Assembly: GCA_008080745.1 (NCBI GenBank)
Contig: SHMX01000001.1
Location: forward strand, 30,001 to 62,000
DNA length: 32,000 nt
Direction of reading: 5' to 3'
Source: Candidatus Thorarchaeota archaeon
Lineage (GTDB): Archaea; Asgardarchaeota; Thorarchaeia; Thorarchaeales; Thorarchaeaceae
A program made the position numbers and the translations under genes. Numbering within the stretch: the first letter of the stretch is position 1; each line of letters starts with the position of its first letter. Shown in pieces: positions 1,979-25,650 of the stretch. The notes beneath the pieces were generated by a model. That model was not told the origin of the DNA. It did not search any database and was given only the letters and a program-made list of their open reading frames with translations.

Positions 1979-1994
1979 TTATAGAGAAAATCAT

Positions 1995-2040
1995 AAGGAC
2001 AACGGCGACAAGCTCGTCGCTTATGTCCTTTTTCTTATTT
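1995..2040. terminator. Hairpin plus T-rich tract between convergent genes
   Basis: AAGGACA-acg-GCGAC-aagctc-GTCGC-tta-TGTCCTT followed by TTTCTTATTT, between the mae stop (1978) and the M28 gene stop (2040). Confidence 0.45.
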
Positions 2041-4022: not shown

Positions 4023-4263
4023 ATCCTGATAGGGATGGTTTTCGCAGGACAAACATTGCAGTTCCTCATAAATATGCGTCGAAATAAGCAGGGAATAAAA
4101 CAACATCAGTAAATATCGCACTGTAATTAATGATACTCCAGTTAGTTCCGTGTTTTTCAAAGGTCTCTACACACCACAGATATATGATTGAAAAACCTAC
4201 CAGTTCACAATCCTCTTTAGCAGAAAAGAAAATCTATAATCACGATTATCCGGGGTACTTTTG

Positions 4264-5361
4264 ATGTCTTATGACAAATGCGTTCGATGCGGTTCATGCG
4301 TGAAATTCTGCCCTATCTTTGACGCTATTGGAGAAGAACAATTCTCTCCTCGTGGAAAGACCTATCTCCTTCAGGTCATGGATCAGATTGATGAAGATGA
4401 AGAGCTAGGAAGAGAATTCAGAAGACTGCTCTTCCAATGTACAATGTGTGGTCGTTGTGCTGAAATTTGCTCTTCCGATGTGGACCTACTAAGAATTTGG
4501 CATGAGCAACGAGCAAAAGCATATGAAACAGCACCAGAAGAATTTGAATATATTGAAGCTCTTAAGAAATCGCTAGCCAACGTGAGGAATATATATGGCC
4601 TTCCCATGGATGATAGAGCAATATATTGGGTTGATGAGTTGGAGGTGGACTTCCCAGATATTGAAGATAGATTATATGAAGAGGGGAAGAACGCAGATGT
4701 AATGATATTTTTGGGATGCCTCATGTCATTTCGAGGGTCTCAAATCCCCGTACTCCATTCACTTATTGATGTGCTGGAACGAATGGATATTGACTACTTG
4801 ATTATGGGTGCAGAGGAGTTTTGCTGTGGGCATCCACTCGATTTAATCGGAGATGAGGAGGGAGCAAAAGAGCTGCAGAAGCATAATCGAGGCGTTATAG
4901 AAGCAGCTGAAGTAAAACAAGTTGTAACATGTTGCCCGGGTTGTCTGATGCAATTACGGAATCATCATCAATTGGATGCGGAGGTGTTACATCATACCCA
5001 GTTCTTTGACAGATTGTTAGAGGATATACCAAAATACAGCCAGAAAGAAGATTTTACATATCATGATCCATGTGAATTACATCGGCTCTGCGAAGTGAAA
5101 AAGGAACCTAGATCACTACTAAAGAAAATGGAAATAGAATTTAGAGAGATGGAGTTGAGTTGTTGTGGTGGGGGTGGCTTGCTCCGATTAACAGACCCAA
5201 ATCTTAGTGATAAGGTAATCCAATTGCGTGCTCAGAGGGAGAAACTGAATAGAAGTACGGTAATAACCTGTTGTCCGGCATGCCGAGAACAACTTCTTGG
5301 TACAGACTTGAAAACCGTAGATATCGTTGAATTACTCGACCAAGTGATGAGAGGGAGCTGA
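4264..5361 (+). CDS. (Fe-S)-binding oxidoreductase subunit, GlcF/HdrD-like (2x[4Fe-4S] plus two CCG domains)
   Basis: CVRCGSCVKFCP, CTMCGRCAEIC, FCCGHP, TCCPGC, YHDPC, SCCGGGG, TCCPAC. Confidence 0.9.
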   Translation: MSYDKCVRCGSCVKFCPIFDAIGEEQFSPRGKTYLLQVMDQIDEDEELGREFRRLLFQCTMCGRCAEICSSDVDLLRIWHEQRAKAYETAPEEFEYIEALKKSLANVRNIYGLPMDDRAIYWVDELEVDFPDIEDRLYEEGKNADVMIFLGCLMSFRGSQIPVLHSLIDVLERMDIDYLIMGAEEFCCGHPLDLIGDEEGAKELQKHNRGVIEAAEVKQVVTCCPGCLMQLRNHHQLDAEVLHHTQFFDRLLEDIPKYSQKEDFTYHDPCELHRLCEVKKEPRSLLKKMEIEFREMELSCCGGGGLLRLTDPNLSDKVIQLRAQREKLNRSTVITCCPACREQLLGTDLKTVDIVELLDQVMRGS

Positions 5362-8783: not shown

Positions 8784-9545
8784 ATGAAACCTTCCAATCC
8801 AAATCTAAGAGTAGGGTTCTCTACAGCAGATCAAATAACCCGTCAAATTGTAAGCTCGGGGACAAAAGAAATCGATATCCTCTTGGATGGGGGTCTGGAA
8901 CTCGGTTTCACTCACCTTTTCTTTGGACAACGTAATCTCCATGAAGACATCCTCAAGATGGCTGTGCATATCCAACTTCCCAAGAATCGTGGAGGTCTTG
9001 GCAGCCCAGTCATAATTATAGATAGCGCCAATATTCTAAGAGTAGACCAAATCTCTGATATTGCTATTGAATTGAAGTTAGAACCAGAAGATGTTATGGA
9101 CCGAATCTATGTCTCACGTGCCTTTAACGCTTCACAGACATATGATTTGGTAATGAATCAATTAGATAAATTCTTCAAACGAGTTCCTGCAAAGCTGCTC
9201 ATTGTTACAGGACTACCAGATTTGTATATCACAGAGGGACTAACAGGAGAGAAGCTTCAAGAAATCGGTCATATGGCAACAAGAATCATGACATTTACAC
9301 TAAGAAGGCAGCTTGCGACGGTCATAACAACACCTACTACAGAACAAGGTAAGAACACTCCAGCAGGCGGAAAAACATTGGCAAGTTCTGCACAAGTACA
9401 TGTAAGAGTCATTCATTCGAAAGCTTATGTAAAATATTGTCTTACTAAACATCCCCAACATCCCGAGAGAATAACCTCAAGAATGAAGGCAACAAAATAT
9501 AGTGCCACTCTTCCTCTCTCATATTTTCTGAGAGAGGAAGAGTAG
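8784..9545 (+). CDS. RadA/Rad51-family paralog lacking N-terminal HhH domain and Walker A/B
   Basis: GFSTA, SSGTKEIDILLDGGLE, QLPKNRGGL, IIDSAN, IYVSRAFN, KLLIV, PAGGKTLA align with the RadA core; GEFGSGKT and VDS are not present. Confidence 0.85.
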   Translation: MKPSNPNLRVGFSTADQITRQIVSSGTKEIDILLDGGLELGFTHLFFGQRNLHEDILKMAVHIQLPKNRGGLGSPVIIIDSANILRVDQISDIAIELKLEPEDVMDRIYVSRAFNASQTYDLVMNQLDKFFKRVPAKLLIVTGLPDLYITEGLTGEKLQEIGHMATRIMTFTLRRQLATVITTPTTEQGKNTPAGGKTLASSAQVHVRVIHSKAYVKYCLTKHPQHPERITSRMKATKYSATLPLSYFLREEE

Positions 9546-9551
9546 AGAGGA

Positions 9552-12500
9552 TTATTCCTCGTTACCACCAATACTCTCTAGTAGTTCATCTATTGCTTCT
9601 CGTGGAAGTTCTTTTGCCTGTTCAATGAGGTTATCAATCTCATGATCCTCGATACCTCTCTGCTTCAATTCCTTCCTAAGTTCTTCAATCTCGAAGTCAC
9701 TCAGTTTGTCACCGGGGATAGAATCCCAATCAGAGTCAATAGAGGACGGAGTCTTTTCAGGCGTCTTGTCTACTGGAGTAGTATCTTCAGTAGGAGTAGT
9801 GTCATCGGGTATACCGATAATTATTGGACTAGGTCCTTCATCAGGGCCCTTGTCGGGAACCGCACCTGTCTTCAACTTGGCCTCTGTTTCAACTTTCTTG
9901 AGAATATCCTCTACAGTAGTGTGTTCACGACGAGCTGCACGAATAGCTTCTTGTTGAATGACTTCTTTCACGAATGCAGCCTGTTCACTCATCCGCATCT
10001 TAGAAATATCAGACTTGAACTCATCAAGCTCGGTCTGGGAGAGATTAGTCAGTATCTGAAGCTGAATAAGCAGTTCACCCATCTCTGGTACCTCAACAGG
10101 AACTGAAGTTTCAGGTACTTGGCTTACTGTTCGAACAATTTCAAGACCCTTCAACGTGTCGGTCCACAAATCAGCAATAACACCTCTTCTATCACGGACT
10201 TCAGAAATGGGTTTAGGCATCTTACCTTTCTCCATTGCTTTAATTTGTCCGTTTATCTGACGAATACGTTTTGGTACACTCCAGACTTTCACATACATTC
10301 CCAGCAGAAGGATAATGACAAGACTGATGGGGAATCCAATTCTGAGACTGTTATCTACTAGAATATCAACATCGTTCATAAGAACAGATACTCGAAACTC
10401 AGCAGTAGCATTGGTATGATAAGGTCTACTGAGGATTATTTGAATGGCTGAAGGTACACCAACAGACTCTGCATAGAGCTCGATTTGATACCAACCATTA
10501 CTTTGTTCGGCCCATCCGATTACTACAATTGAAGGTGTATCGCTGCTTATGGTGAGAATAGCATCAGTGATTCCAATTCCATGCCATGTGTCATTAAATT
10601 GAACTCGTATTGTAGTCGATGCTCCATGGATAAGACTGAAAGATGTATCGGAAGGATCTGTTGATACTTGAGTTGGGACTTCAATAATGCGAAGTCTCAC
10701 AGTGACTTCTGAAGTTTCGTAATTAGAAAGCTTCAGAACAATGGTGAAACGATAGTAGCCATCCACAATCTCAGGTACTCCTTCAGAGTATTGATAGATT
10801 TCTGTATCAGTAGTATCAAAGACTAGTTTATACCAACCACCTTCCATCTCAATAAGTTCGAAGTTACGACCCCCATCAAAGGTGACACCTCTGAACACAC
10901 TAGCATCAAGCAAATTAGCTTGAGATATGCCACCCACATACCCCTCAGTGGAATCGGTATCATTGTAAAGGACTAGTATTTCGATTGTATCACCCATAGG
11001 TACTACAAGATTGAGTGGATTGTCTTCCGCTACTCGGTTTTGAAGTGGAGATTCAACAATCAACTCGGTTGGTACTTCCTGTACAGCTATAGTAAGAGAA
11101 GAAGTACCAACGACATAATTCGGTTTGTTAAATGAGATAGTAACCGTGTATCGAGCACCAGGCGTCAATATGGTTGTATTAACAAAGACCGTATAAGATC
11201 CATTACCCAAATCTGTCGCATTCAAGCCAGCATATGGCCCCCATGAGAAGAGAGCTTCAGCCCCACCCACACCTACTTCATTCCAGGTGTCATCAAAGTA
11301 GAATGTGACATTGCCTTCCCAACCCCATACCACCGTAGGTGCAGTCAGATAAGAGGCTTGAGTTGGAATAAGTTTGATAGTTAGAGTTAAGGTAGCTATC
11401 GAATCGCTAAGGACCGGGTCTCCGGGCTGACCGAGAATAGTGATACCCCAACTGCCATAATTAGCATCTGTGGTATTGAAGACAGCTTGCCAAATTCCAT
11501 CTCCGATATGAGTGAAGTTGCCTTGGATACCAACCTCCGAGAGATCCCAAATAACCGCAGTTCCGTTTTCATCTGTAATCTGGAAACCGAGGTCAGGAGC
11601 AGTAAAGTTGACCTCAAATGTAACTAGTTCGGAGTAGTAGGCATTGATGGTCTTGGTAGTCGAACCAGAAAGGTTCAATTCGGTTCTGCTCTGTTGTAGG
11701 TTGACCTTGAATTGATATGGAGCAGGATTGTAATTAATGAACTCTGCAAGAATGTTTACACTGTAAAAAGTGATTGGCAATTCAGTAGCGGAGCCAGGAA
11801 TAGTTGCAGTGTAATAACCCGGAGTTCCATTGTATGCCATCGGATAGTCCACACCTTGGAAGGTTATGTAGACATTCTGAATATAGGTATCATTGACTGG
11901 GACAGCGTTGAAAGTGTCATTGAGATATACGCTGATTGGAACAGAGGCCCCTCGAGGTAGATTCAAAGATGCCACATTAGGTGTGATGGGGACCATGTCA
12001 GATGGCAAAGTGAGAACAATCAGGGTGATAGTAGTGACTGCGTTTGCGAACTTGTCCTTCTGAGCATATATTTTGATAACTCTAGTTCCTGAGTTTGCCA
12101 GAGATGTATCGATATCAACGGTATAGACACCCGATGTGCCCGTTTCAATTAGAGTACCTGTTCCTCCGTCCCATTCATAAGTGACGGTAGCACCAGGAGT
12201 TAGATTCGCACTAAGAAGATTCTCATATTCCACATAGAGAGTGGCAGTTTCAGTCCAGCTCAATTGAATGGTATCCTCTGTCGGCGTTAGTATTGTTCGG
12301 ATGACTGTAACAGTGAAGGTCGGCTGAACACTGGCAACTCTGTAGGGATAAAGACTTGCCGTGACATTCAACGCATAACTACCCGTCGAATCAAGGTCAA
12401 TGGTGCTGAACGAGATGTTGTATGCACCACCTCCGATGTCTTCAATTACTAAATCAGCAGGAACAATACCCGTCGATAGATACGACACTGTTATTGCACC

Positions 12501-15500
12501 TGGAACCCCAGCAATTCCAATCTGCCCATGGTCTAAATCACGGAAGTATACCGTTACATTCACACTAGCAGAGATTTCAACTGAGGAGGGCTGTGGTAAA
12601 TCAGCCTGTAAAGCGGTCCATATCAGATCGACTGAACCAGTCACAGTAATAGTTGATAGATTAGCATAGAAGGGAATTAGTGATTGATTCCACTGAACGG
12701 TAATATCGAATGTGTAATCACCAACGTTACTGAATACTGCAGTATTGACTGTTATGTTGTAATATCCAGCCAATGAACCAGTACCCTCCGTAATGTTATA
12801 TGATGAACCCTCAACCAATGACTGCTCAACACAGTCAAAGAGAATGATTGCTCCCTCTACAGGTATATCTTTCGCACCATCTTCCACAAAGAAAGTAATG
12901 GTGAGAATATCACCCTTTGGAGTTGATGGAATCTGTCCCAAAGTGAATGACATAGATCTACCAATGGTTGTAACTCTGAGAGAGGTCTGATCATCAGTAT
13001 AGAATGGTGCATTTGAATCATTCCAATCTATGAAGATAGTAAGATTGAGGTCATTTACCAGTTCAGTTCCTAGAACGGTTGAATTTATGGAAACCAAGAA
13101 GTTAGAACCGGAGGGAGTGATGACATATTCATTTGCTAGAAGTGGAGTACCATTTGAATAGATGATAACATTCGAAGCTGATACGGAGATAGGTTCATCT
13201 GAAATAGTATCTGTGAATCTAAAGGTGAAAGTCATATTATCCCAATAGCTTGTCTGCGAAGGTGGAGAAATAATCTCAACATCCGCTGTTCTTTTGGTTA
13301 CTGTTACAGATACATTTCTTGATGCATCATTGTGATATGGTGCTCCGCCACTCCAAATTGCTGTAACCTTCACTTGATAGGAGCCCAGACTTGTAAGAGC
13401 AGTGGTGTTCAATTGAATGATATATTCTCCAGCCGCTCCTTGTGTCACGAAGAAATCAGAGCCCTCTGTAAGAGTACTTGTGGTTTGCAAACTTATTGTG
13501 GCTCCAGATATTCCCTGTGTTTCATCAACATCCCAATAATACATTGTAAACTCTGCAAACTCCAGATAAGCAGCGGGTACAGGTGCATCTTGAATGTCTA
13601 GACTTGAAACACGATTGCGAATTGAGAATGAAACATATAGGAAGTCACTTCGATAATATGGAGATTCATAGATGTAGGACATACTAATGTTTAGCACAAA
13701 TGTCTGTCCAACAGGTAGAGTCTGACCATCAGTTTCAACAAGAAGCTGATATGTTTCACTTGCAGGCCTCCATGTTACTGTGAACACCCAACTAGTACCA
13801 TTAACAATCTCAAGAGTGGTCTGGGGTGTGGAATTACCAATATTGTCCAAAGTCAACATGTCTTGATAATATAGGATGATTTCCATGGTTGTACCATAAC
13901 CCACACTCCCTACAGGTTCTGCCGATAATAAGGTGGTTCGAAGTCTAACGTTTAGTGTTCGTACAGCAGATGCATCATTGGCAAAATTACTTCCAGTGTA
14001 TACAAACGAGGCATTGATGGAATAATAACCCGGCTCACCAAAGTATCCTGAATCGAACTCGAAATCGAATTGTCCATTACCCTGAGGTGTAATTTGATAG
14101 TATATCAATGGAATCTCAGTTGTTCCATTATATAACGAGATAGTAGCATCATCAATACCAAATTCTGTTGATCCTGCAATATCCTCATAAGTGATAGAGA
14201 ACGTGACATTATCGCCATAAGGCGTAGGAGCCGGAGCCTGATAATCCAACTGAGTTTGTCTCAGAGTGACAGTTAGAGATATCTGTTGGAATGTCCTATT
14301 TGCATAATATGGAGAACCATTCCATGTGATATTGATATGGAAGGTCATTCGACCAATGTTCCCAAATTGTGAGGTGTCAAATGACACGGTGAATATACGT
14401 GTACTTGTACTATAGGTTATTTCTGGTACTTCGGTCAGATTTGTTACCAGAGTAAGATTTCCAGCATTGGCAATCAGTGTATCTATCGTCGTTGTATCAA
14501 GATAACCAACTTGTACTGTTGCATTTTCACCATATGCTGTGTTTGTTGGAGGCTCAATTGATAGAGCAGTTGTCCTTGCAATCACAGTAACTTGTATGTT
14601 TGTTGAATCATCACGATAGTAATTTGGCGAATCTGGCCAATCAACGGAAATAGTCAACTGAAGGTTAGAAACCAATACTGAAGTAATGATTGTAGAATTG
14701 ATGCTAATTTCATATTGATTCGATCCGATATCAGTATAAACAAAATCAGATGGGGACAATTCAATAGCACCTTTGTAGATATGAAGAAGACTCTTTGTCA
14801 CTGAAGGAATAGTTGTTCCATATCCCAGGTCGGTGAACTCAACAACAAAGGTCACATTCTCTAAGTAGCTCGTCCGGCCAGGTGTAGAAACAATAGTGAC
14901 ATCTGTTGGTCTTCTTATGACACTCAGATTGATACTTAGTGAGGCATTATCGTGGAATGGAGCTGTCATGCTCCAATTTGCCCAAATCGTAATGCCAAAA
15001 CTGCCGATTCCCCCAAGTGCTTCAGAGTCCACAGAGACCGTATAATAACCTCCAGAATCGTCAGAATAGGTATACTCGGTAGTTAATGTGAGTGGTGTAC
15101 CACTTACTTCTACGTTGATTGTCGCACCCGATACACCCACTGATGCATCAGCATCACTATAGTATACAGAGAAATCAATCCAATCGAGATATGGCGTCTG
15201 AACAGGAGAAGTTTCCCTTTCCAATGAAGACTCACGATGCCTCAACTCAAACGTAATAGTAGTATCATCCCAATTATAGAAGGGACTCTCATATGAATAA
15301 CTCATATTTAATTTGAGAGAATATTCTATACCAATCTCGAGGCTTGGTTGGTTGTAGGTTTCAATAGTTAGCTCATAGTATCCCATTGCTGAGACCCAAC
15401 TAATTGTATACAGCCAAGACCCTGCTGTTTCAATATTGAAGAAGACATCAAATGTGTCATTTCTAATATCCGCTAAAGTAAGTGTGTCTTGGTAATAGAG

Positions 15501-18500
15501 AATCACAGTAAAGGAAGAGTTGTACGGGACTCTATCAAAGGGATCTGAAGTAAGAGAAGTAACCCGCTTAGTTATAGTCAATGTCCTGTCGGAATCATCA
15601 GAAGCATAATAGAATTCCGATGATGTTATGTTCACAGTAATCACATATGAACCAGGTGTGGCAAAGTAAGTGGTATTGAATACAACTTCATATTCCCCGT
15701 CTGTTCCAGGTGTAACACTGTAATAGGATCCTAGAATTTGAGTGGTACCATTATACAATATAACTGTAGCACCATCAATACCACTTGAGCTACTTCCAGT
15801 CACATCAGTCCAAGTCACTGTGAAAGTCACATTGTCCAAATAAGGAGTGGGAGCAGGAGACTGGTAGTCCAATACCGTATCTCGTACTGTGACTGTTACA
15901 AACACAGTTCGTCCTGTTTTGTTCTGATAGAACGGCGAACCATACCACTCAATATCAAGAGTAAATGATTGCTGACCCAGTCCACCAAATTGACTTGTAT
16001 TAAACTGAACCGTGAAGGTCCGGGTAGCAGATTCGTAAGAGAGTGTGTAGTCACTTAGACTTAGTGAGATATTGAGAGAGGTCGAATTCGCAATGGATTC
16101 ATCTATCAGAGCATCTTCATAATTGAAAGTAAAGGATGCGATTTCCGAATAGGATGTAGCAGAAGCAGGTACTAACGAAACCAAAGTGTCTCTTGCTAAG
16201 ATTCTAACAGAGATTGTATCTGTTCGGTTTGTATAAAATGGAGCAACTCCATAAGACCAGTTGATATAGACTCGCATGTAGATTAGTCCGGTATGTGAAA
16301 ACAGTGATGTGTTGAATCTAATCGAGTAATTACCGGGACTAGTTGAAGAATCAACCTCCCAAATATCAACTTGTGAGAGTTCTACAGATTCTCCTGTGAA
16401 GACGACATTGATGTGAACATCACCAGTATCATTGGTTATTCCATCACCGTTGCTCTTAGAATAGAAGAATGTGTAGCTCATGTTATTCAGATAAGGAGTG
16501 GGTTCAGATGACAAAATCAGGGTAAGACGGGAGTCCTCTCCAACAATATTAGCTGAAGCTTGGACAGTCTTATTCTGGTATTTGTAAACAGAGCCAGTCC
16601 AATTGAAGAAGACAGTGAAGTCTTGAAGTCCTAATCCACCAAATTGTGCTGCAGAGATAGTTATTAAATAATACCCGCTACCAAGCGATGTATCGTTCAC
16701 CATCGTAGCAGAAACTTGCATGGTTTCATTCCACACCTCATAACTAATGAGATCGGACACGATTCCAGCTCCTGCACTATCTAAATCTCCATAGAATACC
16801 GAGATTTCAATCTCGCCATTGTATGCAGTAGGTTCGATAGCACTCACTAAACGAAAGTCTGTGTTGTGTGTTCGAACTACTACAGTCAGGTTAAACAGAC
16901 CAAACTGATAGTTCTCGCCTTTTGAGAAGTTAAACATAACGAGGTAAGTACCTAATGCTACCGAGTCAGATGTAGTAAATGTGAGTTTGTACTCTTCACC
17001 AACCATCGTGACAGATACAGTTTCTGTCCAGTTATGATTAACTGTTGCTCCTGTGATTGCTTCATCGTGGTCAATATCCCAATAATCAACATAGAATACA
17101 GGAGAATTACCAACTGGAATGTCTAATGCACCAGTAGAAGGAATTGCATAGGTATACGCAATCCGGATGACAACGGTGAAACGCAATGTTTGAGGTGCGT
17201 AACCATCTGCATCTGCTGTCAGGTTGTAATAATGAGTGCCTTTGTTGAATCCGGTTATGTTAACAGTAACCCGGTATTGACCATTTCCAAGGTCTTGTTG
17301 ATTGTAGATTGTTATACCCTCAGCTGAGATAGTAGCACCCACAATTCCAGCATCACGATCAATATCCGTGAAGTTCAGAGTGACTGTGAAATCAGTTTCA
17401 AATGGAGTAGTTACAGTACGGTCTCCTGAAGAGAGTTCGCTTCTTGCAGGACGATATTCAAATACCAAAGTTAGTTGATGTGATTGATATCGTGAGTCTG
17501 TAGATACAAATGTAACATAGATGGTATAAGTACCCTCGGGGAAATAGCTCCCATCTATTGTTAGATTGTAACGTCCATCTCCAAGGTGAACCATAGTAAA
17601 GACATAACTACCAGTACTATTTTCAACCGTAAAGTTAGTAGCAGTTAGGCCAGTTATTGGGTCCCCATAATATTGTCCGAGTTCTGTAATATTCAATCGT
17701 AAGACAATCTTGAAATCATCACCTTTTGGAAATATCATGTCATTGGGTTCGTTGGAAAGAGTTGTTTCGATACTATGGATAGTGATATCAAATACGTAAT
17801 TATCAGGATTATAGTAGTTGGAAGAGCCCATTGATACGCTAAGGGTCACTGAAGTGATTCCAACATCCCAAGTATCTGTCGCAAGTGTGATATCAAATGT
17901 GCTTACTGTTGTAATTTCTTGGAAACTAGTTGCCCAGGTGAAATTGAGCCAGTCAACATTTGTATATGTTACAAGTGTACCTGTATCTAAATCAGTTATT
18001 TTCACTGTAACATCTGTGGTATTTCCATAGGGAGAAGTTAGATCTCCAGTTACTGTAATGGAGGTATAGTGTCTTCTAATCGTTACATCGAATGAAAAGG
18101 TATCTGGATCAAAATAGTTGGATCCACTCATGGATACTTCTAACGTAACAGTCACAATACCTACTGACCAAGAATCCGTTGGTAGTGTATCAGTTAGTGA
18201 TGATGCAGGGTTTTGTTCGTAGAACCCACCAGTCCATGTGAAATTGAACCAGTCAGCATTACCAGCTGCCAGTTGTGCACCAGTATCAGAGTCGTAAATG
18301 ATGATTGTTACATCGGTAGTTTCACCGTAAGGAGTAATATAATCTCCAGATACGCTTACAGAAGTGAAATGTTTCCGTATTGTAATATCAAAGTCATAAC
18401 CATCTGGATCGAAGTAATCAGAACCAGTCATATCCACTGTAATAGTAACAGTTTCAGTTCCCAGAGACCAAGTGTTTGTTGCTAATGTAACACTATAACT

Positions 18501-21500
18501 AGTCCCATCAAAGTTCTGAGAATCTCCAGTCCAAGACATAGAGAATGAAGCAACATCAATAATGGACACGACTGTTCCAGTATCGAGATCTACTACCTCA
18601 ACAGTTAGAGGTGTATCCATTCCGACTGGTGTGGTCATGTTTCCTTTGACCGTTACAGCTGTGTAGTGGTTTCTAATCTCAATATCAAAGGCATAAGAGT
18701 CAGGATCAAAGTAATCAGAACCAGTCATATCGATTGTTAGGATGACTGTATCAAGTCCAACAGCCCATCCATCAGTATCAAGTTCAAATACATAATCAGA
18801 AGGATTGGATTCTCCACCAGAAGAATATGATGCGGGAGTGAATGTAAATGAAGCCACGTTTCCAATAGCAATCGAAGTGCCTAGATCTGTGTCTATCAAT
18901 AATATGGTCAGGGTAGTATTTTGACCCCATGGTGTTAGCAAATCACCAGAAACAGTGACAGAAGTGTAGTGCTTCCTTATCTCGACATCAAAATCAAATG
19001 AGTTTGGATTGAAATAGTCAGATCCAGTCATATCAACTGTCAGAGTTACTGTATCGATTCCAACTGTCCAACCATCTGTATCTAATTCATATATGTAGTC
19101 GGATGGGTTTGATTCACCCTCAGAGGAATGGGAGGCGGGGGTAAAAGTGAATGAATTCACATTTGTGGAAGCAATGGCAGTTCCCGTGTCAGTGTCATTC
19201 AGAATAATGGTAACAGAGGTATTGAAACCAAAGGGAGACAAGAAATCGCCAATAACTGATACTGATGTGTAGTGTTTCCGTATGTTTATTGTGAAGTCGT
19301 AGTTTGTTGGATCAAAGTAGATTGAGCCAGTTAGCGAAACTGATAACGTTACGGTCTCATCGCCCAATACCCAGGTATTTGTGGTGAGTGTCTGACTGTA
19401 AGAAAGGGGAGAATTGATAATTTGTGCAGAATAGCTCACTGGATCAAAAGTGAATGAAACTACATCACCAATAGGTACGGAGGTACCCGTGTCCATGTCC
19501 GTAAGGACTACGGTAACACCGGTATCAAAGTCAAATGGTGTTACAAGATTGCCCTGCACTGAAACGGAAGTATAATGTTTTCGGACAGTAAATGTGACGT
19601 TAGTATCCGCATCAGCCATATATGACCCAGTTTTTGATGCATCAAATACAAACCAGTGGTTACCAAGTCCCAAATAACTCAAGTCGAGGGAGATGTTATA
19701 CATACCATTCCCTTCAGCATCGGTCGCAATAGTGGTTCCATTGTCAAAGGAGATAGTTGCACCTGTGATAGGTATGTCATCATAGACATCCCAGTAGAGT
19801 AATGTGGCTGTGGAATCAAAACCAATGGGCGTAGATGAAACATTCAGATAGGTCAATCTAGTTTCATGGTATAAATCCAAGTCAAAGTATTCAGTTGCAT
19901 TGTTGTAATGAGGATGATATGAAGCAATGTTGATTCTCCAACGTTGAGCAGTTCCCAGGTCAGAAGTGTTCAGGACAATGCCATACGAACCAGCCCCATA
20001 TTCATCAAGAGTGATTTCAGTTGGAGTGCCACTCTGAGTCCAATTCATTGTAACAGTTGCTCCAACCACACCGCCAGCAGTGATATCATCCGTGAGGTCT
20101 AACTCAACTTCAAGAAATTCTCCAGCCAATCGGATGGAGGTTCTGTCGGATACTGCATCATACGGTTCTACAATAGTAAGAGTAGTATCATGTTGAACAA
20201 TGAAATCTCGTTCCATGAGTCCTGTTGCATTAGTTACTGAAACACCCGTGTCATTGTAATAGACAGAGGCGGTCCAGACACCAGCGGGAGCAGTGGAATC
20301 CAGAGTCTTTGTGATTGTCAAGTCAGGAGATGTCCTAATTTGTTCAGTTCCCACAGAATAGAAAGTACTGGGATTATTTTGGTTATCATACATAACGGAT
20401 ATCCATGTTGCTGATTGAATAGTGGTTGAGATTGAAACCTCATCAATCCCACCATCGAAATAGGCGTAAGTACCTGATACTTGATCGATTTGATCTCCAC
20501 CAATTCCCCAAGCGCTGGAGAAATCCAAGCTTGTTGATGCAGGATATTGATCACCAATATAAGCCGTTGCCATATTTTGACCGTCAATATAGATTCTATT
20601 GTTTTCAGCATCACTCGCATCAAAAGTGACGGTATAATGATACCAGCCTGGATCCCAATAGGTCTTTCCTGATGTGTATTTATAATGGAGTACACCATCA
20701 CCAACATTCTCAATCTTGAAAACAAATGACCCATCTGATGCAGAAGAAGAGTAATCACTTCCTACCAATGCAATATGCATATCGTAGTCACCAGAGTAAT
20801 ATTTCTCCATAATCAATTTGGTAGAAGAAGACGAACTGTGCGCACTGTCTAACCTAAACCAACCAGATATTGTCAAATCGCCTGTCGGGTCTAAGCCAAG
20901 GGTGTCGTTTATCTCAATCCAATCATCTGTTGCAAAGTTCTGTGCATTGGCAATCTTTCCAGATGTTGTCACAACATTTCCATTCTGGTTTCCATCGTAT
21001 CCATTCTCAGTGGAATCATAATGAATACCCGTGGTCTGCTCATCAATAGTGTTTTCTCCAAGGTGCCATACAGCTGCATAATCTGAATTCCAAACCTCAG
21101 TAGGTCTCTCTTGGGGACCAACGAATGGATTCCCATAATACATGCTGATTACAGTATTAGTACTTGAGGAGAGATTGGTCTTCACCCATGCTACTAATCG
21201 GGCATTAGAACTATCATAATTCTGATTCCACAACTCAATCTCATGAGGAAGTATATCACCATTTGCAGATACAAAGACAATATCATCACCATCAGATTGA
21301 ACTTTTGATGTATCATGGAGATCAGCATCAGTTAATTCAACAAGTAATGGATAATCTGTAAGATCAGATGCTACCTCAGAAGAAGAAATAGTTATTGATT
21401 TACGGTATTGAAATGAAGGAATGAGATGAGTAGGAGTTCCTGTTGTAGTGGCATAATCAGTATGCCATTGAGAACCTGTAGGGTCTGTTAGAACAAGTCC

Positions 21501-24500
21501 CACTCGCGAATCAGTAATCCATGGAGTGGTTGCTTGCATCTCAAATACATCATTGATATCGAAAATATCCGTATTTCCAAGGGTCTGTCCCTGATGCCCG
21601 ATTTTGGCATCCAAGATATAATTCAAACTCTGGAATTCAATGACCCATACTCCCCATATATCAACCGCATCAGCAAATATCGTAAGGGTACCACCTGTAT
21701 ATGTCCAATCAGTTCCATAGGTCTTTGATTGACCAACTGGATTCATGACCGATGTTGGTTTCCATTCGGTCTGAGGATAATCGATGTATGCGTTCATTGA
21801 TGCAGTATTTGGTGGGGGCGAAATTAGTACGTTAGCAGTCCAATTCACATATTCTGTACCATTGTCTATAACAAAAGTTGTACCTGTGTTCATCTTATCA
21901 TCAAGACTCTGTCCACTTCCGGAAATAGTAAGTGATGCAGTAGTTTCCAGTGAAACGGGGTCTGTAGAGGAGGTGGCAAATTCTAGAGAAGCAGCCTCAG
22001 TGCTTTCATAGGTATCCTTGTTTGTCTGTTCTGAACCAACCGAGAGAAATGAATTAGGACTGTCTTGATTTCGGAATTGGGTAAGAATCCAATTGGAAGA
22101 TCTTGCAACATTCGATATTCTAGCTTCATCAATAATTCCATCAAAACTTCTAGTTCCTTCACTATTGTCCCCAATCGTTACTTCGGTTGTAGAGTCATCA
22201 AAATTTGAACCACTATTTGCCAATCCTTGATAATAAGATCCATCAAGATAGACTCGAACCTCATTTGAGGAAAGGGACTGGTCAAAAGTTACTACTAAAT
22301 GATGCCAAGTACTCAAGCTAATAGCATAATCTGCAGAGTTCCAATCGGTGTTTGTTCCATCTGTATAAACCCTAACCTTAAGCGCTTGTGTATTATCCAC
22401 ACCAATCATGAAAATGTGAGGCCCTCCTCCGGTTCCTACCTCCTTTGATATAATTCTATAATCTCCATCAGTATTAAGATAGAACCAGCTCTCTAATGTA
22501 ATCTCACCCCAGGAATCAGTATCCATTTGTCCAATGATTGCCCGTTCACTACTACCAGTAAATTCGTAAGCCCCATCAATCTGACCATCTGTCACATTTC
22601 TTGCAGCCATATCAAAGGGCACACCATCATAATCGTTCTCTGTACTATCGATAAGTTGTCCAGCAGTCAAGTTGTCGTTCATATGCCATACGGATTCATA
22701 TCCTGAGTTCCAAACGCCCTCGGCATTCTGAAGATTTCCAACATCGGAATCGCCATAATGCATTTCTATAGTAGTATCTGAAGACCCAGAGAGAGTTGGA
22801 ATACGAACCCAAGCAATCAGATGAGCGTGAGTGGAATTATAGTAATGGTCGTAGTACTCAATCTCATGATTTAATTGAACTCCATTTTGCATGAAGGCAA
22901 TATCATCACCATCTTTCTGTGCATCTGTCTTCAAGTCCGAGTCATAAATATCAACCATGACTGGAAAGTCGCTCAGGGTTGTAGCTACTTGGCCCGAATT
23001 AATTGTGATGTCTTTCTTATATGCAAGACTAGCTACGGTATCTTCAGCATTGGGAAGGATATATTCAACATAGATTCTCGATAATTCATGAGCATCAAAA
23101 TATGAACCATATGACCCCTTAATGTCATTGTATGACTGATATGATGAAGCATGCATGAAGTCTAGCATGATTGCCACATAGTCGCCAGCATTCCACCCAT
23201 TCTCATTGATACCCTTCTGTAATAGAGCCCCAAAATCAGGAGAATAATATCGTTCACCAGAATTCCAAGCTGAAGGAGACCAATCAACGCTAGTGTCAAT
23301 GAATGTTAGTCTATCTTCAAGTTGGTCACCACCACTCGTAAATGCGGAAATATCATTCCCAGAATTATCACGGCTTGCGAGATACAATCGCATATCATTC
23401 ATTGTACCAACCCCAGCAGATTCAACCTCAATATATGCTTGGGTGATTGCTGCTCCTACCGGAATATCCAATGGGAACTGTAAGCCAATCTGGTAAGGAT
23501 TAGTATCGCTCCATGAGGACCCCCAAGTCCCAACAGATAAAACTGCATCATTGTTATATCCATCTAAATCGAATCCTGAACTATCGGGGTCGTATCCATC
23601 ACGATTCTCACCATCAGGTAAGAATGGCGATGCACTGTACAACTCAGAGCCTACTACATAAGTACCATTAACAGTAAGATCAACTTGTTCTGGGAAAGGA
23701 CGAACTTCTAAATCAACCGTAAAATCATCAACGTAAACATATGCATCACGAGAATTGCTCTGAGAGCCAGATAAGTCTGTTCCAATTCCCACCTCTATCA
23801 GAATAGAATCAGGTAAGTCTATTGAATTAATAATGGATGAAGGGATAGAAATCGTTGATAGTTGCCATGAATCCGTAGGTGAACCGGATGCAAATACACC
23901 AAGCTGGTATTCATATCCACCAAATCGGAGAAAGAGATAGACTTGGTCATTGAGATTAGAAGAAGAAGAAACATAATAGTAGAACTGAACCTCTACAGAG
24001 GATAGTTCACGATATGGAGCAGAAATCATCTGGCTAATATAGATACTATCAGAGGAGGAGAGACTTGTACCACCGGACCATTCTGCATCAAATCGCCATC
24101 CCATCGTTCCACTACGACCGGCACCCCCAATACTATTAAACTCAAAAACACCATGATGAGGATGCCCAGTTCCAGATGTGTCTGTTTTGGTAAGTACCCA
24201 ATTATCAGGGATAGCAACATCTTCGGAATTATAACTAGTTCCGAGAAATTTCTCATTGTGATAGGAGTTCAAATCCTTATTCAGCAACCGATCACTATCA
24301 GTAATCACCATGGAATCAATTGTAGTATCCAAATCAGAACCAGTCCAGCCGTCATCCAAGGAAATAGTGGTTGTGCTAGGATTTGACGAATCAATGGTCA
24401 TCGATCCATCATATGTGTTTGTAGCAGTTCCAATCATGGAATACGACAGTGGCATACCAGTTCCAGTGGTGTAGATAGTATCAGCAACAGACCAAGAGTC

Positions 24501-24617
24501 AGGATTTTGAAAATCATTTGACTCTAAATTACCCACATTTGTTGGTGTTGTGATACTAGGAACAGGAATTACAAATATCAGTATAATAAGAAGTCCAACA
24601 AGACTTGCTCTCCTCAT
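9552..24617 (-). CDS. Giant (5021 aa) single-pass cell-surface protein: signal peptide, 2x DUF2341-like + LamG/ConA-like modules, roughly 30 Ig-like beta repeats, TM helix, 245-aa cytoplasmic tail
   Basis: Uninterrupted 15,066-nt ORF. MRRASLVGLLIILIFVIP signal, GGAGG SD at 24628-24632, YESVWHMND / WHHLVVTFD / GIIDEARIS LamG-type motifs, abundant N-x-S/T sequons, TM IGFPISLVIILLLGMYV near 10340. Confidence 0.9.
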   Translation of the reverse strand: MRRASLVGLLIILIFVIPVPSITTPTNVGNLESNDFQNPDSWSVADTIYTTGTGMPLSYSMIGTATNTYDGSMTIDSSNPSTTTISLDDGWTGSDLDTTIDSMVITDSDRLLNKDLNSYHNEKFLGTSYNSEDVAIPDNWVLTKTDTSGTGHPHHGVFEFNSIGGAGRSGTMGWRFDAEWSGGTSLSSSDSIYISQMISAPYRELSSVEVQFYYYVSSSSNLNDQVYLFLRFGGYEYQLGVFASGSPTDSWQLSTISIPSSIINSIDLPDSILIEVGIGTDLSGSQSNSRDAYVYVDDFTVDLEVRPFPEQVDLTVNGTYVVGSELYSASPFLPDGENRDGYDPDSSGFDLDGYNNDAVLSVGTWGSSWSDTNPYQIGLQFPLDIPVGAAITQAYIEVESAGVGTMNDMRLYLASRDNSGNDISAFTSGGDQLEDRLTFIDTSVDWSPSAWNSGERYYSPDFGALLQKGINENGWNAGDYVAIMLDFMHASSYQSYNDIKGSYGSYFDAHELSRIYVEYILPNAEDTVASLAYKKDITINSGQVATTLSDFPVMVDIYDSDLKTDAQKDGDDIAFMQNGVQLNHEIEYYDHYYNSTHAHLIAWVRIPTLSGSSDTTIEMHYGDSDVGNLQNAEGVWNSGYESVWHMNDNLTAGQLIDSTENDYDGVPFDMAARNVTDGQIDGAYEFTGSSERAIIGQMDTDSWGEITLESWFYLNTDGDYRIISKEVGTGGGPHIFMIGVDNTQALKVRVYTDGTNTDWNSADYAISLSTWHHLVVTFDQSLSSNEVRVYLDGSYYQGLANSGSNFDDSTTEVTIGDNSEGTRSFDGIIDEARISNVARSSNWILTQFRNQDSPNSFLSVGSEQTNKDTYESTEAASLEFATSSTDPVSLETTASLTISGSGQSLDDKMNTGTTFVIDNGTEYVNWTANVLISPPPNTASMNAYIDYPQTEWKPTSVMNPVGQSKTYGTDWTYTGGTLTIFADAVDIWGVWVIEFQSLNYILDAKIGHQGQTLGNTDIFDINDVFEMQATTPWITDSRVGLVLTDPTGSQWHTDYATTTGTPTHLIPSFQYRKSITISSSEVASDLTDYPLLVELTDADLHDTSKVQSDGDDIVFVSANGDILPHEIELWNQNYDSSNARLVAWVKTNLSSSTNTVISMYYGNPFVGPQERPTEVWNSDYAAVWHLGENTIDEQTTGIHYDSTENGYDGNQNGNVVTTSGKIANAQNFATDDWIEINDTLGLDPTGDLTISGWFRLDSAHSSSSSTKLIMEKYYSGDYDMHIALVGSDYSSSASDGSFVFKIENVGDGVLHYKYTSGKTYWDPGWYHYTVTFDASDAENNRIYIDGQNMATAYIGDQYPASTSLDFSSAWGIGGDQIDQVSGTYAYFDGGIDEVSISTTIQSATWISVMYDNQNNPSTFYSVGTEQIRTSPDLTITKTLDSTAPAGVWTASVYYNDTGVSVTNATGLMERDFIVQHDTTLTIVEPYDAVSDRTSIRLAGEFLEVELDLTDDITAGGVVGATVTMNWTQSGTPTEITLDEYGAGSYGIVLNTSDLGTAQRWRINIASYHPHYNNATEYFDLDLYHETRLTYLNVSSTPIGFDSTATLLYWDVYDDIPITGATISFDNGTTIATDAEGNGMYNISLDLSYLGLGNHWFVFDASKTGSYMADADTNVTFTVRKHYTSVSVQGNLVTPFDFDTGVTVVLTDMDTGTSVPIGDVVSFTFDPVSYSAQIINSPLSYSQTLTTNTWVLGDETVTLSVSLTGSIYFDPTNYDFTINIRKHYTSVSVIGDFLSPFGFNTSVTIILNDTDTGTAIASTNVNSFTFTPASHSSEGESNPSDYIYELDTDGWTVGIDTVTLTVDMTGSDYFNPNSFDFDVEIRKHYTSVTVSGDLLTPWGQNTTLTILLIDTDLGTSIAIGNVASFTFTPASYSSGGESNPSDYVFELDTDGWAVGLDTVILTIDMTGSDYFDPDSYAFDIEIRNHYTAVTVKGNMTTPVGMDTPLTVEVVDLDTGTVVSIIDVASFSMSWTGDSQNFDGTSYSVTLATNTWSLGTETVTITVDMTGSDYFDPDGYDFDITIRKHFTSVSVSGDYITPYGETTDVTIIIYDSDTGAQLAAGNADWFNFTWTGGFYEQNPASSLTDTLPTDSWSVGIVTVTLEVSMSGSNYFDPDTFSFDVTIRRHYTSITVTGDLTSPYGNTTDVTVKITDLDTGTLVTYTNVDWLNFTWATSFQEITTVSTFDITLATDTWDVGITSVTLSVSMGSSNYYNPDNYVFDITIHSIETTLSNEPNDMIFPKGDDFKIVLRLNITELGQYYGDPITGLTATNFTVENSTGSYVFTMVHLGDGRYNLTIDGSYFPEGTYTIYVTFVSTDSRYQSHQLTLVFEYRPARSELSSGDRTVTTPFETDFTVTLNFTDIDRDAGIVGATISAEGITIYNQQDLGNGQYRVTVNITGFNKGTHYYNLTADADGYAPQTLRFTVVIRIAYTYAIPSTGALDIPVGNSPVFYVDYWDIDHDEAITGATVNHNWTETVSVTMVGEEYKLTFTTSDSVALGTYLVMFNFSKGENYQFGLFNLTVVVRTHNTDFRLVSAIEPTAYNGEIEISVFYGDLDSAGAGIVSDLISYEVWNETMQVSATMVNDTSLGSGYYLITISAAQFGGLGLQDFTVFFNWTGSVYKYQNKTVQASANIVGEDSRLTLILSSEPTPYLNNMSYTFFYSKSNGDGITNDTGDVHINVVFTGESVELSQVDIWEVDSSTSPGNYSIRFNTSLFSHTGLIYMRVYINWSYGVAPFYTNRTDTISVRILARDTLVSLVPASATSYSEIASFTFNYEDALIDESIANSTSLNISLSLSDYTLSYESATRTFTVQFNTSQFGGLGQQSFTLDIEWYGSPFYQNKTGRTVFVTVTVRDTVLDYQSPAPTPYLDNVTFTVTWTDVTGSSSSGIDGATVILYNGTTQILGSYYSVTPGTDGEYEVVFNTTYFATPGSYVITVNITSSEFYYASDDSDRTLTITKRVTSLTSDPFDRVPYNSSFTVILYYQDTLTLADIRNDTFDVFFNIETAGSWLYTISWVSAMGYYELTIETYNQPSLEIGIEYSLKLNMSYSYESPFYNWDDTTITFELRHRESSLERETSPVQTPYLDWIDFSVYYSDADASVGVSGATINVEVSGTPLTLTTEYTYSDDSGGYYTVSVDSEALGGIGSFGITIWANWSMTAPFHDNASLSINLSVIRRPTDVTIVSTPGRTSYLENVTFVVEFTDLGYGTTIPSVTKSLLHIYKGAIELSPSDFVYTDIGSNQYEISINSTIITSVLVSNLQLTISVDWPDSPNYYRDDSTNIQVTVIARTTALSIEPPTNTAYGENATVQVGYLDTTTIDTLIANAGNLTLVTNLTEVPEITYSTSTRIFTVSFDTSQFGNIGRMTFHINITWNGSPYYANRTFQQISLTVTLRQTQLDYQAPAPTPYGDNVTFSITYEDIAGSTEFGIDDATISLYNGTTEIPLIYYQITPQGNGQFDFEFDSGYFGEPGYYSINASFVYTGSNFANDASAVRTLNVRLRTTLLSAEPVGSVGYGTTMEIILYYQDMLTLDNIGNSTPQTTLEIVNGTSWVFTVTWRPASETYQLLVETDGQTLPVGQTFVLNISMSYIYESPYYRSDFLYVSFSIRNRVSSLDIQDAPVPAAYLEFAEFTMYYWDVDETQGISGATISLQTTSTLTEGSDFFVTQGAAGEYIIQLNTTALTSLGSYQVKVTAIWSGGAPYHNDASRNVSVTVTKRTADVEIISPPSQTSYWDNMTFTFRFTDTISDEPISVSASNVIIYSNGTPLLANEYVITPSGSNFLVSINSTVLGTELVNDLNLTIFIDWNDSNAPFYTDDQTSLRVTTIGRSMSFTLGQIPSTPKGDILTITFFVEDGAKDIPVEGAIILFDCVEQSLVEGSSYNITEGTGSLAGYYNITVNTAVFSNVGDYTFDITVQWNQSLIPFYANLSTITVTGSVDLIWTALQADLPQPSSVEISASVNVTVYFRDLDHGQIGIAGVPGAITVSYLSTGIVPADLVIEDIGGGAYNISFSTIDLDSTGSYALNVTASLYPYRVASVQPTFTVTVIRTILTPTEDTIQLSWTETATLYVEYENLLSANLTPGATVTYEWDGGTGTLIETGTSGVYTVDIDTSLANSGTRVIKIYAQKDKFANAVTTITLIVLTLPSDMVPITPNVASLNLPRGASVPISVYLNDTFNAVPVNDTYIQNVYITFQGVDYPMAYNGTPGYYTATIPGSATELPITFYSVNILAEFINYNPAPYQFKVNLQQSRTELNLSGSTTKTINAYYSELVTFEVNFTAPDLGFQITDENGTAVIWDLSEVGIQGNFTHIGDGIWQAVFNTTDANYGSWGITILGQPGDPVLSDSIATLTLTIKLIPTQASYLTAPTVVWGWEGNVTFYFDDTWNEVGVGGAEALFSWGPYAGLNATDLGNGSYTVFVNTTILTPGARYTVTISFNKPNYVVGTSSLTIAVQEVPTELIVESPLQNRVAEDNPLNLVVPMGDTIEILVLYNDTDSTEGYVGGISQANLLDASVFRGVTFDGGRNFELIEMEGGWYKLVFDTTDTEIYQYSEGVPEIVDGYYRFTIVLKLSNYETSEVTVRLRIIEVPTQVSTDPSDTSFSLIHGASTTIRVQFNDTWHGIGITDAILTISSDTPSIVVIGWAEQSNGWYQIELYAESVGVPSAIQIILSRPYHTNATAEFRVSVLMNDVDILVDNSLRIGFPISLVIILLLGMYVKVWSVPKRIRQINGQIKAMEKGKMPKPISEVRDRRGVIADLWTDTLKGLEIVRTVSQVPETSVPVEVPEMGELLIQLQILTNLSQTELDEFKSDISKMRMSEQAAFVKEVIQQEAIRAARREHTTVEDILKKVETEAKLKTGAVPDKGPDEGPSPIIIGIPDDTTPTEDTTPVDKTPEKTPSSIDSDWDSIPGDKLSDFEIEELRKELKQRGIEDHEIDNLIEQAKELPREAIDELLESIGGNEE
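12960..16193 (-). repeat. Two tandem copies of a five-domain block (1617 nt, 539 aa each) in the giant gene
   Basis: Block 1 16193-14577, block 2 14576-12960. Paired motifs: TRTFTVQFNTSQFG/TRIFTVSFDTSQFG, LDYQSPAPTPYLDNVTF/LDYQAPAPTPYGDNVTF, ILYYQDTLTL/ILYYQDMLTL, APFHDNAS/APYHNDAS, ISINST/VSINST. Confidence 0.8.
17778..19583 (-). repeat. Six tandem ~100-aa repeats in the giant gene
   Basis: R(K/N/R)H(Y/F)T(S/A) unit starts at 19583, 19280, 18977, 18674, 18377, 18077 (spacings 303, 303, 303, 297, 300, then 300 to the next domain). Each unit ends W.xG...VTL...M.GS.YFDP..Y.F.I.I. Confidence 0.9.
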
Positions 24618-24960: not shown

Positions 24961-25650
24961 TTAAGCCTTCTGTAAATAGTCACGATAACCGAGGATTTTG
25001 TACCCTAATCGGTCCACAATATCCTCCATAATGGAAAAAACGTAGTCGGATTCATAATCACGAGGATGAATAGATATCTGAAGAGGGCCACCCAGCTCCA
25101 ATTCAAGCATAGAATCGGAAAAGGATGCTTTTCCATCACCTTGACTAATGATATGATCAGCAGTTACAAATATCTCATCACGTTCAAAGGAATGAATGTA
25201 GTTACCTAACACACAATATTTGAGCCCAACATCTCGTACTTGAGTCAGCACCTTTTGTGTTGCTTGCCAAGCAGGAGGAACGAATCCATATGGGCGAATC
25301 CTAAAAGCACGACGTATCATTGCTATTCCTGATTTTAACCGAGAGGCAGATCTCTCACTTGAGAGTTTTTTGAATTCATCCATACCACCGGATTTGGTGG
25401 TATGAGAGTAACCATGTAATGAGATTTCCAGACCAAGAGAACGAAGATATCCTACAAAGATGTCGCCCTCCTTGAATACATTCGATCCCTTCAGTTGATA
25501 AAAGGGGGGGATAAGAAGAGTATAACCCTTTATCCCAATCTCACTAAGTCTATCATATAGGGATATAATCTCATCTTCATACATTGGAGAAATATCATGG
25601 ATAGACAGCAAAATGACATTATCATCTAAACTGGTCACTGTCTTTACCAT
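24961..25650 (-). CDS. NodB/CE4-type polysaccharide deacetylase-like protein (DUF2334-like)
   Basis: SIHDISP, EISLHGYSH (HxxxH), GFVPPAW, ISIHP. Confidence 0.75.
   Translation of the reverse strand: MVKTVTSLDDNVILLSIHDISPMYEDEIISLYDRLSEIGIKGYTLLIPPFYQLKGSNVFKEGDIFVGYLRSLGLEISLHGYSHTTKSGGMDEFKKLSSERSASRLKSGIAMIRRAFRIRPYGFVPPAWQATQKVLTQVRDVGLKYCVLGNYIHSFERDEIFVTADHIISQGDGKASFSDSMLELELGGPLQISIHPRDYESDYVFSIMEDIVDRLGYKILGYRDYLQKA

Follow-up and report, generated by a model that had tools for sequence, protein, structure and literature searches.

The giant gene and the layout of its product

The 32,000-nucleotide stretch analysed here, referred to below as the window, comprises positions 30,001 to 62,000 of contig SHMX01000001.1 in the genome assembly of a Candidatus Thorarchaeota archaeon (GCA_008080745.1). 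A single gene (9552..24617, reverse strand, counted from the first letter of the window) takes up 15,066 of its 32,000 bases, or 47%, and consists of one uninterrupted open frame of 5,021 codons with the stop codon at 9552-9554. The upstream stop lies only one codon before the ATG, so the start is unambiguous. The product of 5,021 amino acids (aa) is a giant surface protein with immunoglobulin (Ig)-like repeats, distinguished by a cytoplasmic tail that is conserved throughout the class Thorarchaeia and has no recognised fold, and by a length that is constant among orthologues of ∼50% identity. Its features are as follows.

9552..24617, reverse strand: whole gene, a single open frame
24534..24617, reverse strand: signal-peptide-like hydrophobic N-terminus, aa 1-28 (hydropathy peak after MRRAS)
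23697..24305, reverse strand: head domain 1, a β-jelly roll like those of carbohydrate-binding modules (CBMs), aa ∼105-307 (AlphaFold2 predicted local distance difference test (pLDDT) score ∼90; VIA structural matches)
23058..23645, reverse strand: head domain 2, CBM-like β-jelly roll, aa ∼325-520 (VIA structural matches)
22068..22991, reverse strand: DUF2341 plus LamG module 1, aa ∼543-850 (Pfam DUF2341 at aa 569-635, Laminin_G_3 at aa 704-844)
20418..21377, reverse strand: DUF2341 plus LamG module 2, aa ∼1081-1400 (second Pfam stretch of both families)
10368..20126, reverse strand: stalk of 30-31 Ig-like units, aa ∼1498-4750 (iterated hidden Markov model (HMM); FdeC profile match)
17778..19883, reverse strand: seven tandem ∼100-aa units within the stalk, aa ∼1579-2280 (fragment self-comparison)
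12948..16340, reverse strand: ∼540-aa super-repeat, two copies of five Ig-like units, aa ∼2760-3890 (matches at an offset of 540)
10272..10346, reverse strand: single transmembrane (TM) helix, aa ∼4758-4782, followed by a conserved SVPK motif (hydropathy; long helix in the AlphaFold2 model)
9555..10271, reverse strand: cytoplasmic tail, aa 4783-5021, 239 aa (AlphaFold2 pLDDT 85.7)
9861..10091, reverse strand: central helical domain of the tail, aa ∼4843-4919 (model residues 102-173, pLDDT 95-98)
9567..9698, reverse strand: terminal three-helix module of the tail, aa ∼4974-5017 (model residues 230-273, pLDDT ∼95)

The first-pass annotation of this DNA, made from its letters, had described a 5,021-aa single-pass surface protein filling 47% of the window without a frameshift in 15 kb, composed of a signal peptide, a putative carbohydrate-binding N-terminal region, two DUF2341-like plus LamG modules, roughly 30 Ig-like units of ∼100 aa, one TM helix and a long cytoplasmic tail, with dense N-x-S/T sequons. 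That layout is upheld in each of its parts by the analyses below, the carbohydrate-binding region at the level of fold. A Pfam scan of the whole protein with matches taken at E≤0.01 recognised two stretches each of Laminin_G_3 (PF13385; E 4.6e-32; 111.7 bits against a cut-off of 27.6) and DUF2341 (PF10102; E 6.6e-14; 52.6 bits against a cut-off of 23.4), both above the gathering score, together with a weak Big_3_5 match and nothing else. The protein has a single cysteine, and its ectodomain is strongly acidic (577 D+E against 167 K+R). The host genome, in which relatives of the protein were sought, comprises 3.16 Mb and is 98% complete.

A conserved and folded cytoplasmic tail

After the hydropathy peak at aa 1-28 the protein has a single TM helix, which also appears as a helix in the AlphaFold2 model and is followed directly by basic juxtamembrane residues and then the tail; the SVPK-type juxtamembrane motif is found in 19 of the 21 homologues described in the next section. 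In the AlphaFold2 model of the tail, built with 59 tails, the TM helix runs into juxtamembrane helices and then a compact helical domain, which is joined by a disordered, acidic and Thr/Pro-rich linker to the terminal three-helix module. The best conserved 100-residue window of the entire protein lies within the tail (aa 4801-4900, 64% mean identity to distant orthologues), and P, R, L, F and Q positions are invariant in tail alignments (L, F, Q and R across all 59 tails). The predicted long intracellular region is therefore borne out as a substantial domain, from its size, its confident model and its conservation. In tails of other members (P0119, P0123 and P0118) as many as four copies of the ∼45-aa terminal three-helix module follow one another in tandem, suggestive of a docking unit whose copy number varies.

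No relative of the tail was recognised in the libraries searched: Foldseek against the PDB gave no match at E≤0.001, a wide VIA search peaked at Z 5.7 with generic three-helix bundles, an ESM Atlas shape search returned TM-scores of at most 0.26, and Pfam on the 59 tails yielded scattered sub-threshold matches only. A new fold is not thereby proven. A two-copy homodimer prediction for the tail scored 0.00, which is evidence neither way. An acidic Trp motif was considered as a functional element and rejected; it lies in the disordered linker and is present in the closest orthologue (P0003), and it is absent from P0004 and from three paralogues.

The host genome encodes four tailed giants that have the stalk family and the TM/tail region in common. 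Besides the protein described here these are a 3,397-codon frame about 29 kb away, which is cut by the contig start (G000:C1:44-10234, forward strand), and a tandem pair of 2,892 and 2,633 codons (G000:C6:136590-153145, reverse strand). The head was not found in these three paralogous giants with the query used, and the tail modules occur in no other open reading frame (ORF) of the host genome. A STAND-NTPase/HEAT protein is encoded near the tandem pair. The genome also contains at least 38 stop-to-stop frames of more than 1,200 codons, many of them with a signal-peptide-like start, a C-terminal TM helix and a short basic end, an anchoring unlike that of the tailed family.

A profile of the four tails was compared with 1.84 billion cluster representatives and matched 294 at E≤1e-3 and 93 at E≤1e-30, always at the C-terminus and in proteins of up to 5,543 aa; paralogues sharing stalk and tail range from ∼2,600 to 6,570 aa. 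In species-representative genomes the tail was found at 121 loci, nearly all of them in Thorarchaeota metagenome-assembled genomes (MAGs) and a few in genomes labelled Hermodarchaeota or Promethearchaeota, and in a phylum-wide sample it was present in 42 of the 43 other genomes of the host family. Based on these sequence matches, the TM and tail module marks a Thorarchaeia-wide family. In another Asgard family, frames of ∼2,690 codons terminate in weak matches that cover the whole tail (E 1e-20 to 1e-22; G164:C54:34363-35175 and G140:C6:109244-110059; L110 and L115), and partial matches, covering the TM helix and the juxtamembrane part, occur in several further Asgard families. Since there are distant relatives in other Asgard families, the tail design may predate Thorarchaeia.

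Orthologues of fixed length at a conserved locus

With residues 1-540 as the query, 21 giant homologues were found. Ten proteins including the present one form a length class of 5,021-5,058 aa. The nine orthologues align with the present protein end to end, over 4,836-5,010 residues, and gaps make up 1-2% of most alignments; identities span 44.7-80.1%, the upper value belonging to a single close relative and the others being 45-52%. In the orthologues the SVPK motif lies 4,780-4,814 aa from the start, and each orthologue has 29-31 stalk units. Because the length is near-constant across genera, the reach of the fibril that such a protein would form is seemingly under selection, as expected for a spacer or ruler. 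Members of the same head family also fall into other length classes, of ∼4,070-4,100 aa and ∼5,180-6,570 aa, in which roughly 20-22 units can be detected. Both ends of the present protein are matched collinearly by the 4,100-aa class, from which ∼920 residues in the middle of the stalk are missing. In the closest orthologue, P0003 (WJMJ01000071.1; head 81% identical), the annotated start lies 33 residues before the conserved MRRASL, and was probably called too early.

Of 81 genomes of the class, 62 contain the head; these include 21 of the 24 high-quality genomes and represent all 17 genera. Full-length frames of 5,055-5,084 codons were found in five genomes of the class. The gene is single-copy and vertically inherited, and occurs in every genus sampled. 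Both flanks were fetched in the five related genomes with full-length frames (G009, G024, G037, G063 and G077, which represent five genus codes including that of the host), and the 12 neighbours have an identical order, HydB-HydA-ThiI-DUF2334-giant-RadA-like-GcvH-Orc1-like-FAD-binding-CCG-M28/TSP3-malic enzyme. The identity of the flanking genes in all five related genomes fetched indicates a stable chromosomal gene, not mobile cargo.

Three observations concern the immediate surroundings. A DUF2334/polysaccharide-deacetylase-like gene (24961-25650, reverse strand) precedes the giant gene by ∼340 bp, on the same strand, and is immediately upstream of it in all five related genomes (L097-L106); since the whole ∼30-kb block is syntenic, this adjacency alone shows no functional link. 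Downstream of the giant gene is an M28-peptidase-like gene with TSP3 Ca-binding repeats (2040-4160, reverse strand), which has a tandem duplicate in G063 (L102). A hairpin of 17 pairs with a T-rich run behind it (9505-9545, reverse strand) begins 7 nt past the giant-gene stop codon and extends over the 3' end of the convergent RadA-like gene (8784-9545, forward strand); the two genes may share it as a bidirectional terminator.

Genes rich in repeats are easily misassembled, and giant genes of Heimdallarchaeum have been described as carried by mobile elements, the aloposons discussed below. That the present gene is aloposon-like cargo, an assembly artefact or a decaying gene is nevertheless highly improbable. 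The housekeeping flanks are identical on both sides in the five related genomes, there is no tRNA gene within the window, and none of the neighbours matched an integrase or ParA/MinD family in Pfam. GC content is even along the gene, near-identical DNA repeats are absent from it (the best internal match is 73% over 115 nt), and the ten collinear orthologues, which come from independent MAGs, have no frame breaks. In the Logan contigs of two marine-sediment runs the whole gene is spanned by one 52,388-bp contig each, with 0 and 1 differences; as the assembly may itself derive from these runs, this is weak independent support. Taken with the conserved synteny, these results make both a chimeric assembly and a mobile-element origin very unlikely.

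Head domains with the fold of carbohydrate-binding modules

At the threshold applied, roughly every second homologue has a detectable hydrophobic N-terminus like that of the present protein. The region that follows (aa 29-545) was modelled by AlphaFold2 with 21 homologues (pLDDT 77, predicted template modelling score 0.76), and consists of ∼70 disordered residues at its N-terminal end and then two β-jelly rolls. An exhaustive structural search with VIA matched domain 2 to a chondroitin-sulfate-binding CBM (8wab_B, Z 15.3, 169 of 176 residues, root mean square deviation 3.8) and to an alginate-binding CBM (7vbo, Z 12.8), and domain 1 to the hyaluronan-binding module of a hyaluronate lyase (4d0q, Z 12.6) and to an alginate-binding CBM (8zqf, Z 12.3). 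The best match of either domain extends over most of its length. Foldseek placed tandem CBM22 and CBM51 at the top (probability 1.00) and also returned CBM-like domains of Cry, Vip3 and GH101 proteins. Sequence identity between the head and its structural matches is just 10-17%, and Pfam matched no CBM family on the head, giving only a weak MAM hint (E 0.022). Since the best structural matches are polysaccharide-binding modules, a carbohydrate-binding N-terminal region is supported at the level of fold. The tip is of lectin/CBM type by fold, from which glycan binding is predicted. Among homologues the head is conserved at 40-50% identity with many invariant residues.

The two DUF2341-LamG modules follow the jelly rolls. 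In a fragment BLAST comparison module 2 is a duplicate of module 1 at an offset of 540 aa (aa 543-649 against 1081-1189, 44.5% identity, E 2.5e-29).

The Ig-like stalk

An iterated HMM seeded on tandem units converges on 30 units of ∼100-110 aa each between aa 1498 and 4736, and a gap at aa 4298-4428 could hold a 31st. A profile built from the 31 repeats finds the Ig-like domains of FdeC, an adhesin of the invasin family (4e9l, E 5.4e-6), with weaker matches to another invasin, BslA and a pilus anchor, and the ESM Atlas look-alikes of three stalk units are archaeal Big_3_5/MG4 proteins. The fold of the stalk units is assigned by profile, and their number agrees with the roughly 30 of the first-pass annotation.

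Two internal duplications are evident in the stalk. The units of the seven-unit array are 45-72% identical as protein and 61-73% as DNA, with a spacing of ∼300 nt. The copies of the ∼540-aa super-repeat (aa ∼2760-3300 and 3300-3890) match, for example, at aa 2881-2997 against 3422-3538 with 49.6% identity (E 1e-40). Some units of the seven-unit array match other units as well as they match their positional counterparts in orthologues (within-protein maxima 66-80%), which suggests local homogenisation at a constant unit count. An acidic DxD...G loop was considered as a Ca-binding motif and set aside; the pattern occurs in 9 of 31 units at conserved positions, and is too weak to argue for Ca-dependent rigidity.

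The reach on the order of 100 nm put forward in the first-pass annotation is sustained as to the number of domains, of which ∼31 were found. If each Ig-like domain spans ∼3.3-4.5 nm, as in bacterial giant adhesins, a reach of roughly 100-150 nm is plausible; the extended state is an assumption.

Predicted N-glycosylation of the ectodomain

The ectodomain contains 102 N-x-S/T sequons, compared with 59.5±6.5 in composition-preserving shuffles (z 6.5) and with 52 occurrences of the reversed control motif. Sequon positions are kept in at least six of eight distant orthologues in 42 of 103 cases, against 3 of 52 for the control motif, and the sequon density of 2.16 per 100 aa compares with a median of 0.33 in other ORFs of the host genome. 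An STT3/AglB oligosaccharyltransferase is encoded in the same genome. Since the sequons are enriched, positionally conserved and dense, and an AglB gene is present, it is a well-supported reading of the sequence that the ectodomain is heavily N-glycosylated by AglB.

Comparison with known giant surface proteins

The closest relatives of the protein are the other tailed giants of Thorarchaeota, which are deposited as 'DUF2341 domain-containing protein' and of which it is a member: head, stalk, TM helix and tail are common to the 5,021-5,058-aa orthologues (45-81% identity). It differs from the other tailed giants in belonging to the single-copy class of ∼5,050 aa with ∼31 Ig-like units, and in lying in a housekeeping neighbourhood and not in a tandem pair. 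Tandem giant genes of Thorarchaeota were noted by Wu et al. 2022 (PMC8813620, Extended Data Fig. 7), and a survey of 'huge proteins' (PMC11573180) found Laminin_G_3 architectures to be the commonest archaeal class, with a function that is not understood, and includes three Thorarchaeota entries. The family has thus been noticed in the literature as listings and is uncharacterised. In the aloposons of Heimdallarchaeum (PMC8813620) the tandem giant pair Otus/Ephialtes lies beside a tRNA that serves as integration site, and a MinD/ParA ATPase is among the four upstream genes. Compared by gene context, the present locus differs in having a single gene, no tRNA in the window, DUF2334, ThiI and RadA-like neighbours, and conserved synteny.

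A tandem Ig-like stalk with distal ligand-binding modules is shared with the bacterial Ig-repeat adhesins SiiE, invasin/intimin/FdeC and the ice-binding MpIBP. Bacterial giant adhesins are exported by type I or type V secretion and are held in the outer membrane or retained non-covalently; they are not known to have a cytoplasmic domain. Archaea are bounded by a single membrane. Unlike the bacterial Ig adhesins, the Thorarchaeal protein carries a Sec-type signal and one C-terminal TM helix, behind which lies the conserved cytoplasmic tail of 239 aa. Within its own family, its length is near-fixed between orthologues at ∼50% identity.

With FAT/Dachsous cadherins and protocadherins the protein has the layout alone in common, that is, a signal peptide, tens of β-sandwich repeats, LamG-type modules, a single TM helix and a conserved cytoplasmic tail, from which docking of partners inside the cell would be anticipated. 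Matches of the repeat profile to protocadherins were not significant (E 0.6-0.8) and the tail is unlike any known domain, so the likeness is one of analogy only. Archaeal S-layer and PGF-CTERM glycoproteins also combine an exported, acidic, sequon-rich ectodomain with a C-terminal hydrophobic anchor. The first-pass annotation had set the protein apart from typical S-layer proteins and C-terminally sorted adhesins, and the distinction is confirmed: no S-layer family was among the Pfam matches over the whole protein, exosortase/archaeosortase PF09721 was not found in the host genome, and, unlike in archaeosortase-sorted proteins, the TM helix lies 239 conserved residues before the C-terminus and not at the extreme end. 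Cultured Asgard archaea have no ordered S-layer, and complex surface proteins protrude from their single membrane (PMC9834061).

Proposed function

We propose, with moderate confidence, that the protein is a type-I membrane glycoprotein that forms a long, fixed-length, lectin-tipped surface fibril of Thorarchaeia, the tail of which docks a cytoplasmic partner. The signal peptide would export ∼4,730 residues, such that the two CBM-like jelly rolls and the two DUF2341-LamG modules would lie at the distal end and the ∼31 Ig-like domains would serve as the stalk, with one helix anchoring the protein in the membrane and the 239-residue tail predicted to be cytoplasmic. The tip may bind glycans, possibly acidic polysaccharides, on partner cells, in the cell's own coat or in environmental polymers. 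The central helical domain and the terminal three-helix module of the tail may dock a cytoplasmic partner for anchoring, sorting or signalling, and the constant length could let the fibril act as a spacer or ruler. From sequence and models we infer a possible role in cell-cell or partner adhesion.

Several points weigh against this proposal. CBM-like and LamG folds occur in many non-lectin proteins too, and the conserved neighbours are housekeeping genes that give no hint of function. The fold of the stalk comes from profile matches, and both its extension and its rigidity are assumed. The role suggested for the tail derives from its conservation, as it has no recognisable relative, and what can be said of the function of all members of the family comes from their sequences and predicted structures. 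The evidence does not separate a passive glycocalyx or a signalling receptor from plain adhesion.

The protein might instead be a passive component of the cell coat, one of several giants that replace an S-layer as a protective or spacing glycocalyx, with the tail as a mere membrane anchor or a handle for assembly and sorting and a tip that has no specific ligand. Dozens of host proteins exceed 1,200 aa, many with a signal peptide and a C-terminal TM helix, the ectodomain is very acidic and sequon-rich, and cultured Asgard cells are covered by an amorphous proteinaceous coat with no S-layer lattice, all of which would suit such a component. We consider it unlikely, however, since a coat does not obviously need a head with 40-50% identity and many invariant residues, one fixed-length orthologue per genome, or a tail conserved above the ectodomain, and Pfam matched no described S-layer family. 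The conservation of the tail, its confident fold and its modular construction, with 1-4 copies of the terminal module, would in turn fit a transmembrane receptor that relays ligand binding or mechanical load via the helix to the tail, which recruits or regulates a cytoplasmic effector, in the manner of a eukaryotic adhesion receptor, as would the distant full-length relatives of the tail on giants of another Asgard family. The tail nevertheless contains no enzymatic or known signalling domain that could be found, no GTPase/LRR gene adjoins this gene or the three paralogues (the upstream side of the C1 paralogue being cut by the contig end), and relay of a signal along a ∼100-nm single-pass stalk is without a demonstrated mechanism, so that a receptor of this kind appears quite unlikely. 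Similarly doubtful is the more far-reaching idea of an Asgard counterpart of the eukaryotic giant adhesion receptors, in which a lectin-tipped ruler of ∼100-150 nm would fix the spacing to partner cells or matrix and be coupled by its tail to the cytoskeleton, to membrane-remodelling machinery or to a small GTPase. Given the distant relatives of the tail in other Asgard lineages, such coupling between surface and interior could reach beyond Thorarchaeia.

The gene is one orthologue of a class-wide family of fixed length, and its tail is a module common to several paralogous giants. If the tail proves to be a mere anchor, the finding reduces to an ordinary, well-described giant surface glycoprotein. 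The giant gene is an entry point to this family, with a predicted glycan-binding head, a constrained length and a conserved folded tail, and head and tail are small enough to be expressed. The surface proteins of Asgard archaea, their reach and any links they have to the cell interior matter for models in which eukaryogenesis arose from syntrophic contact between cells.

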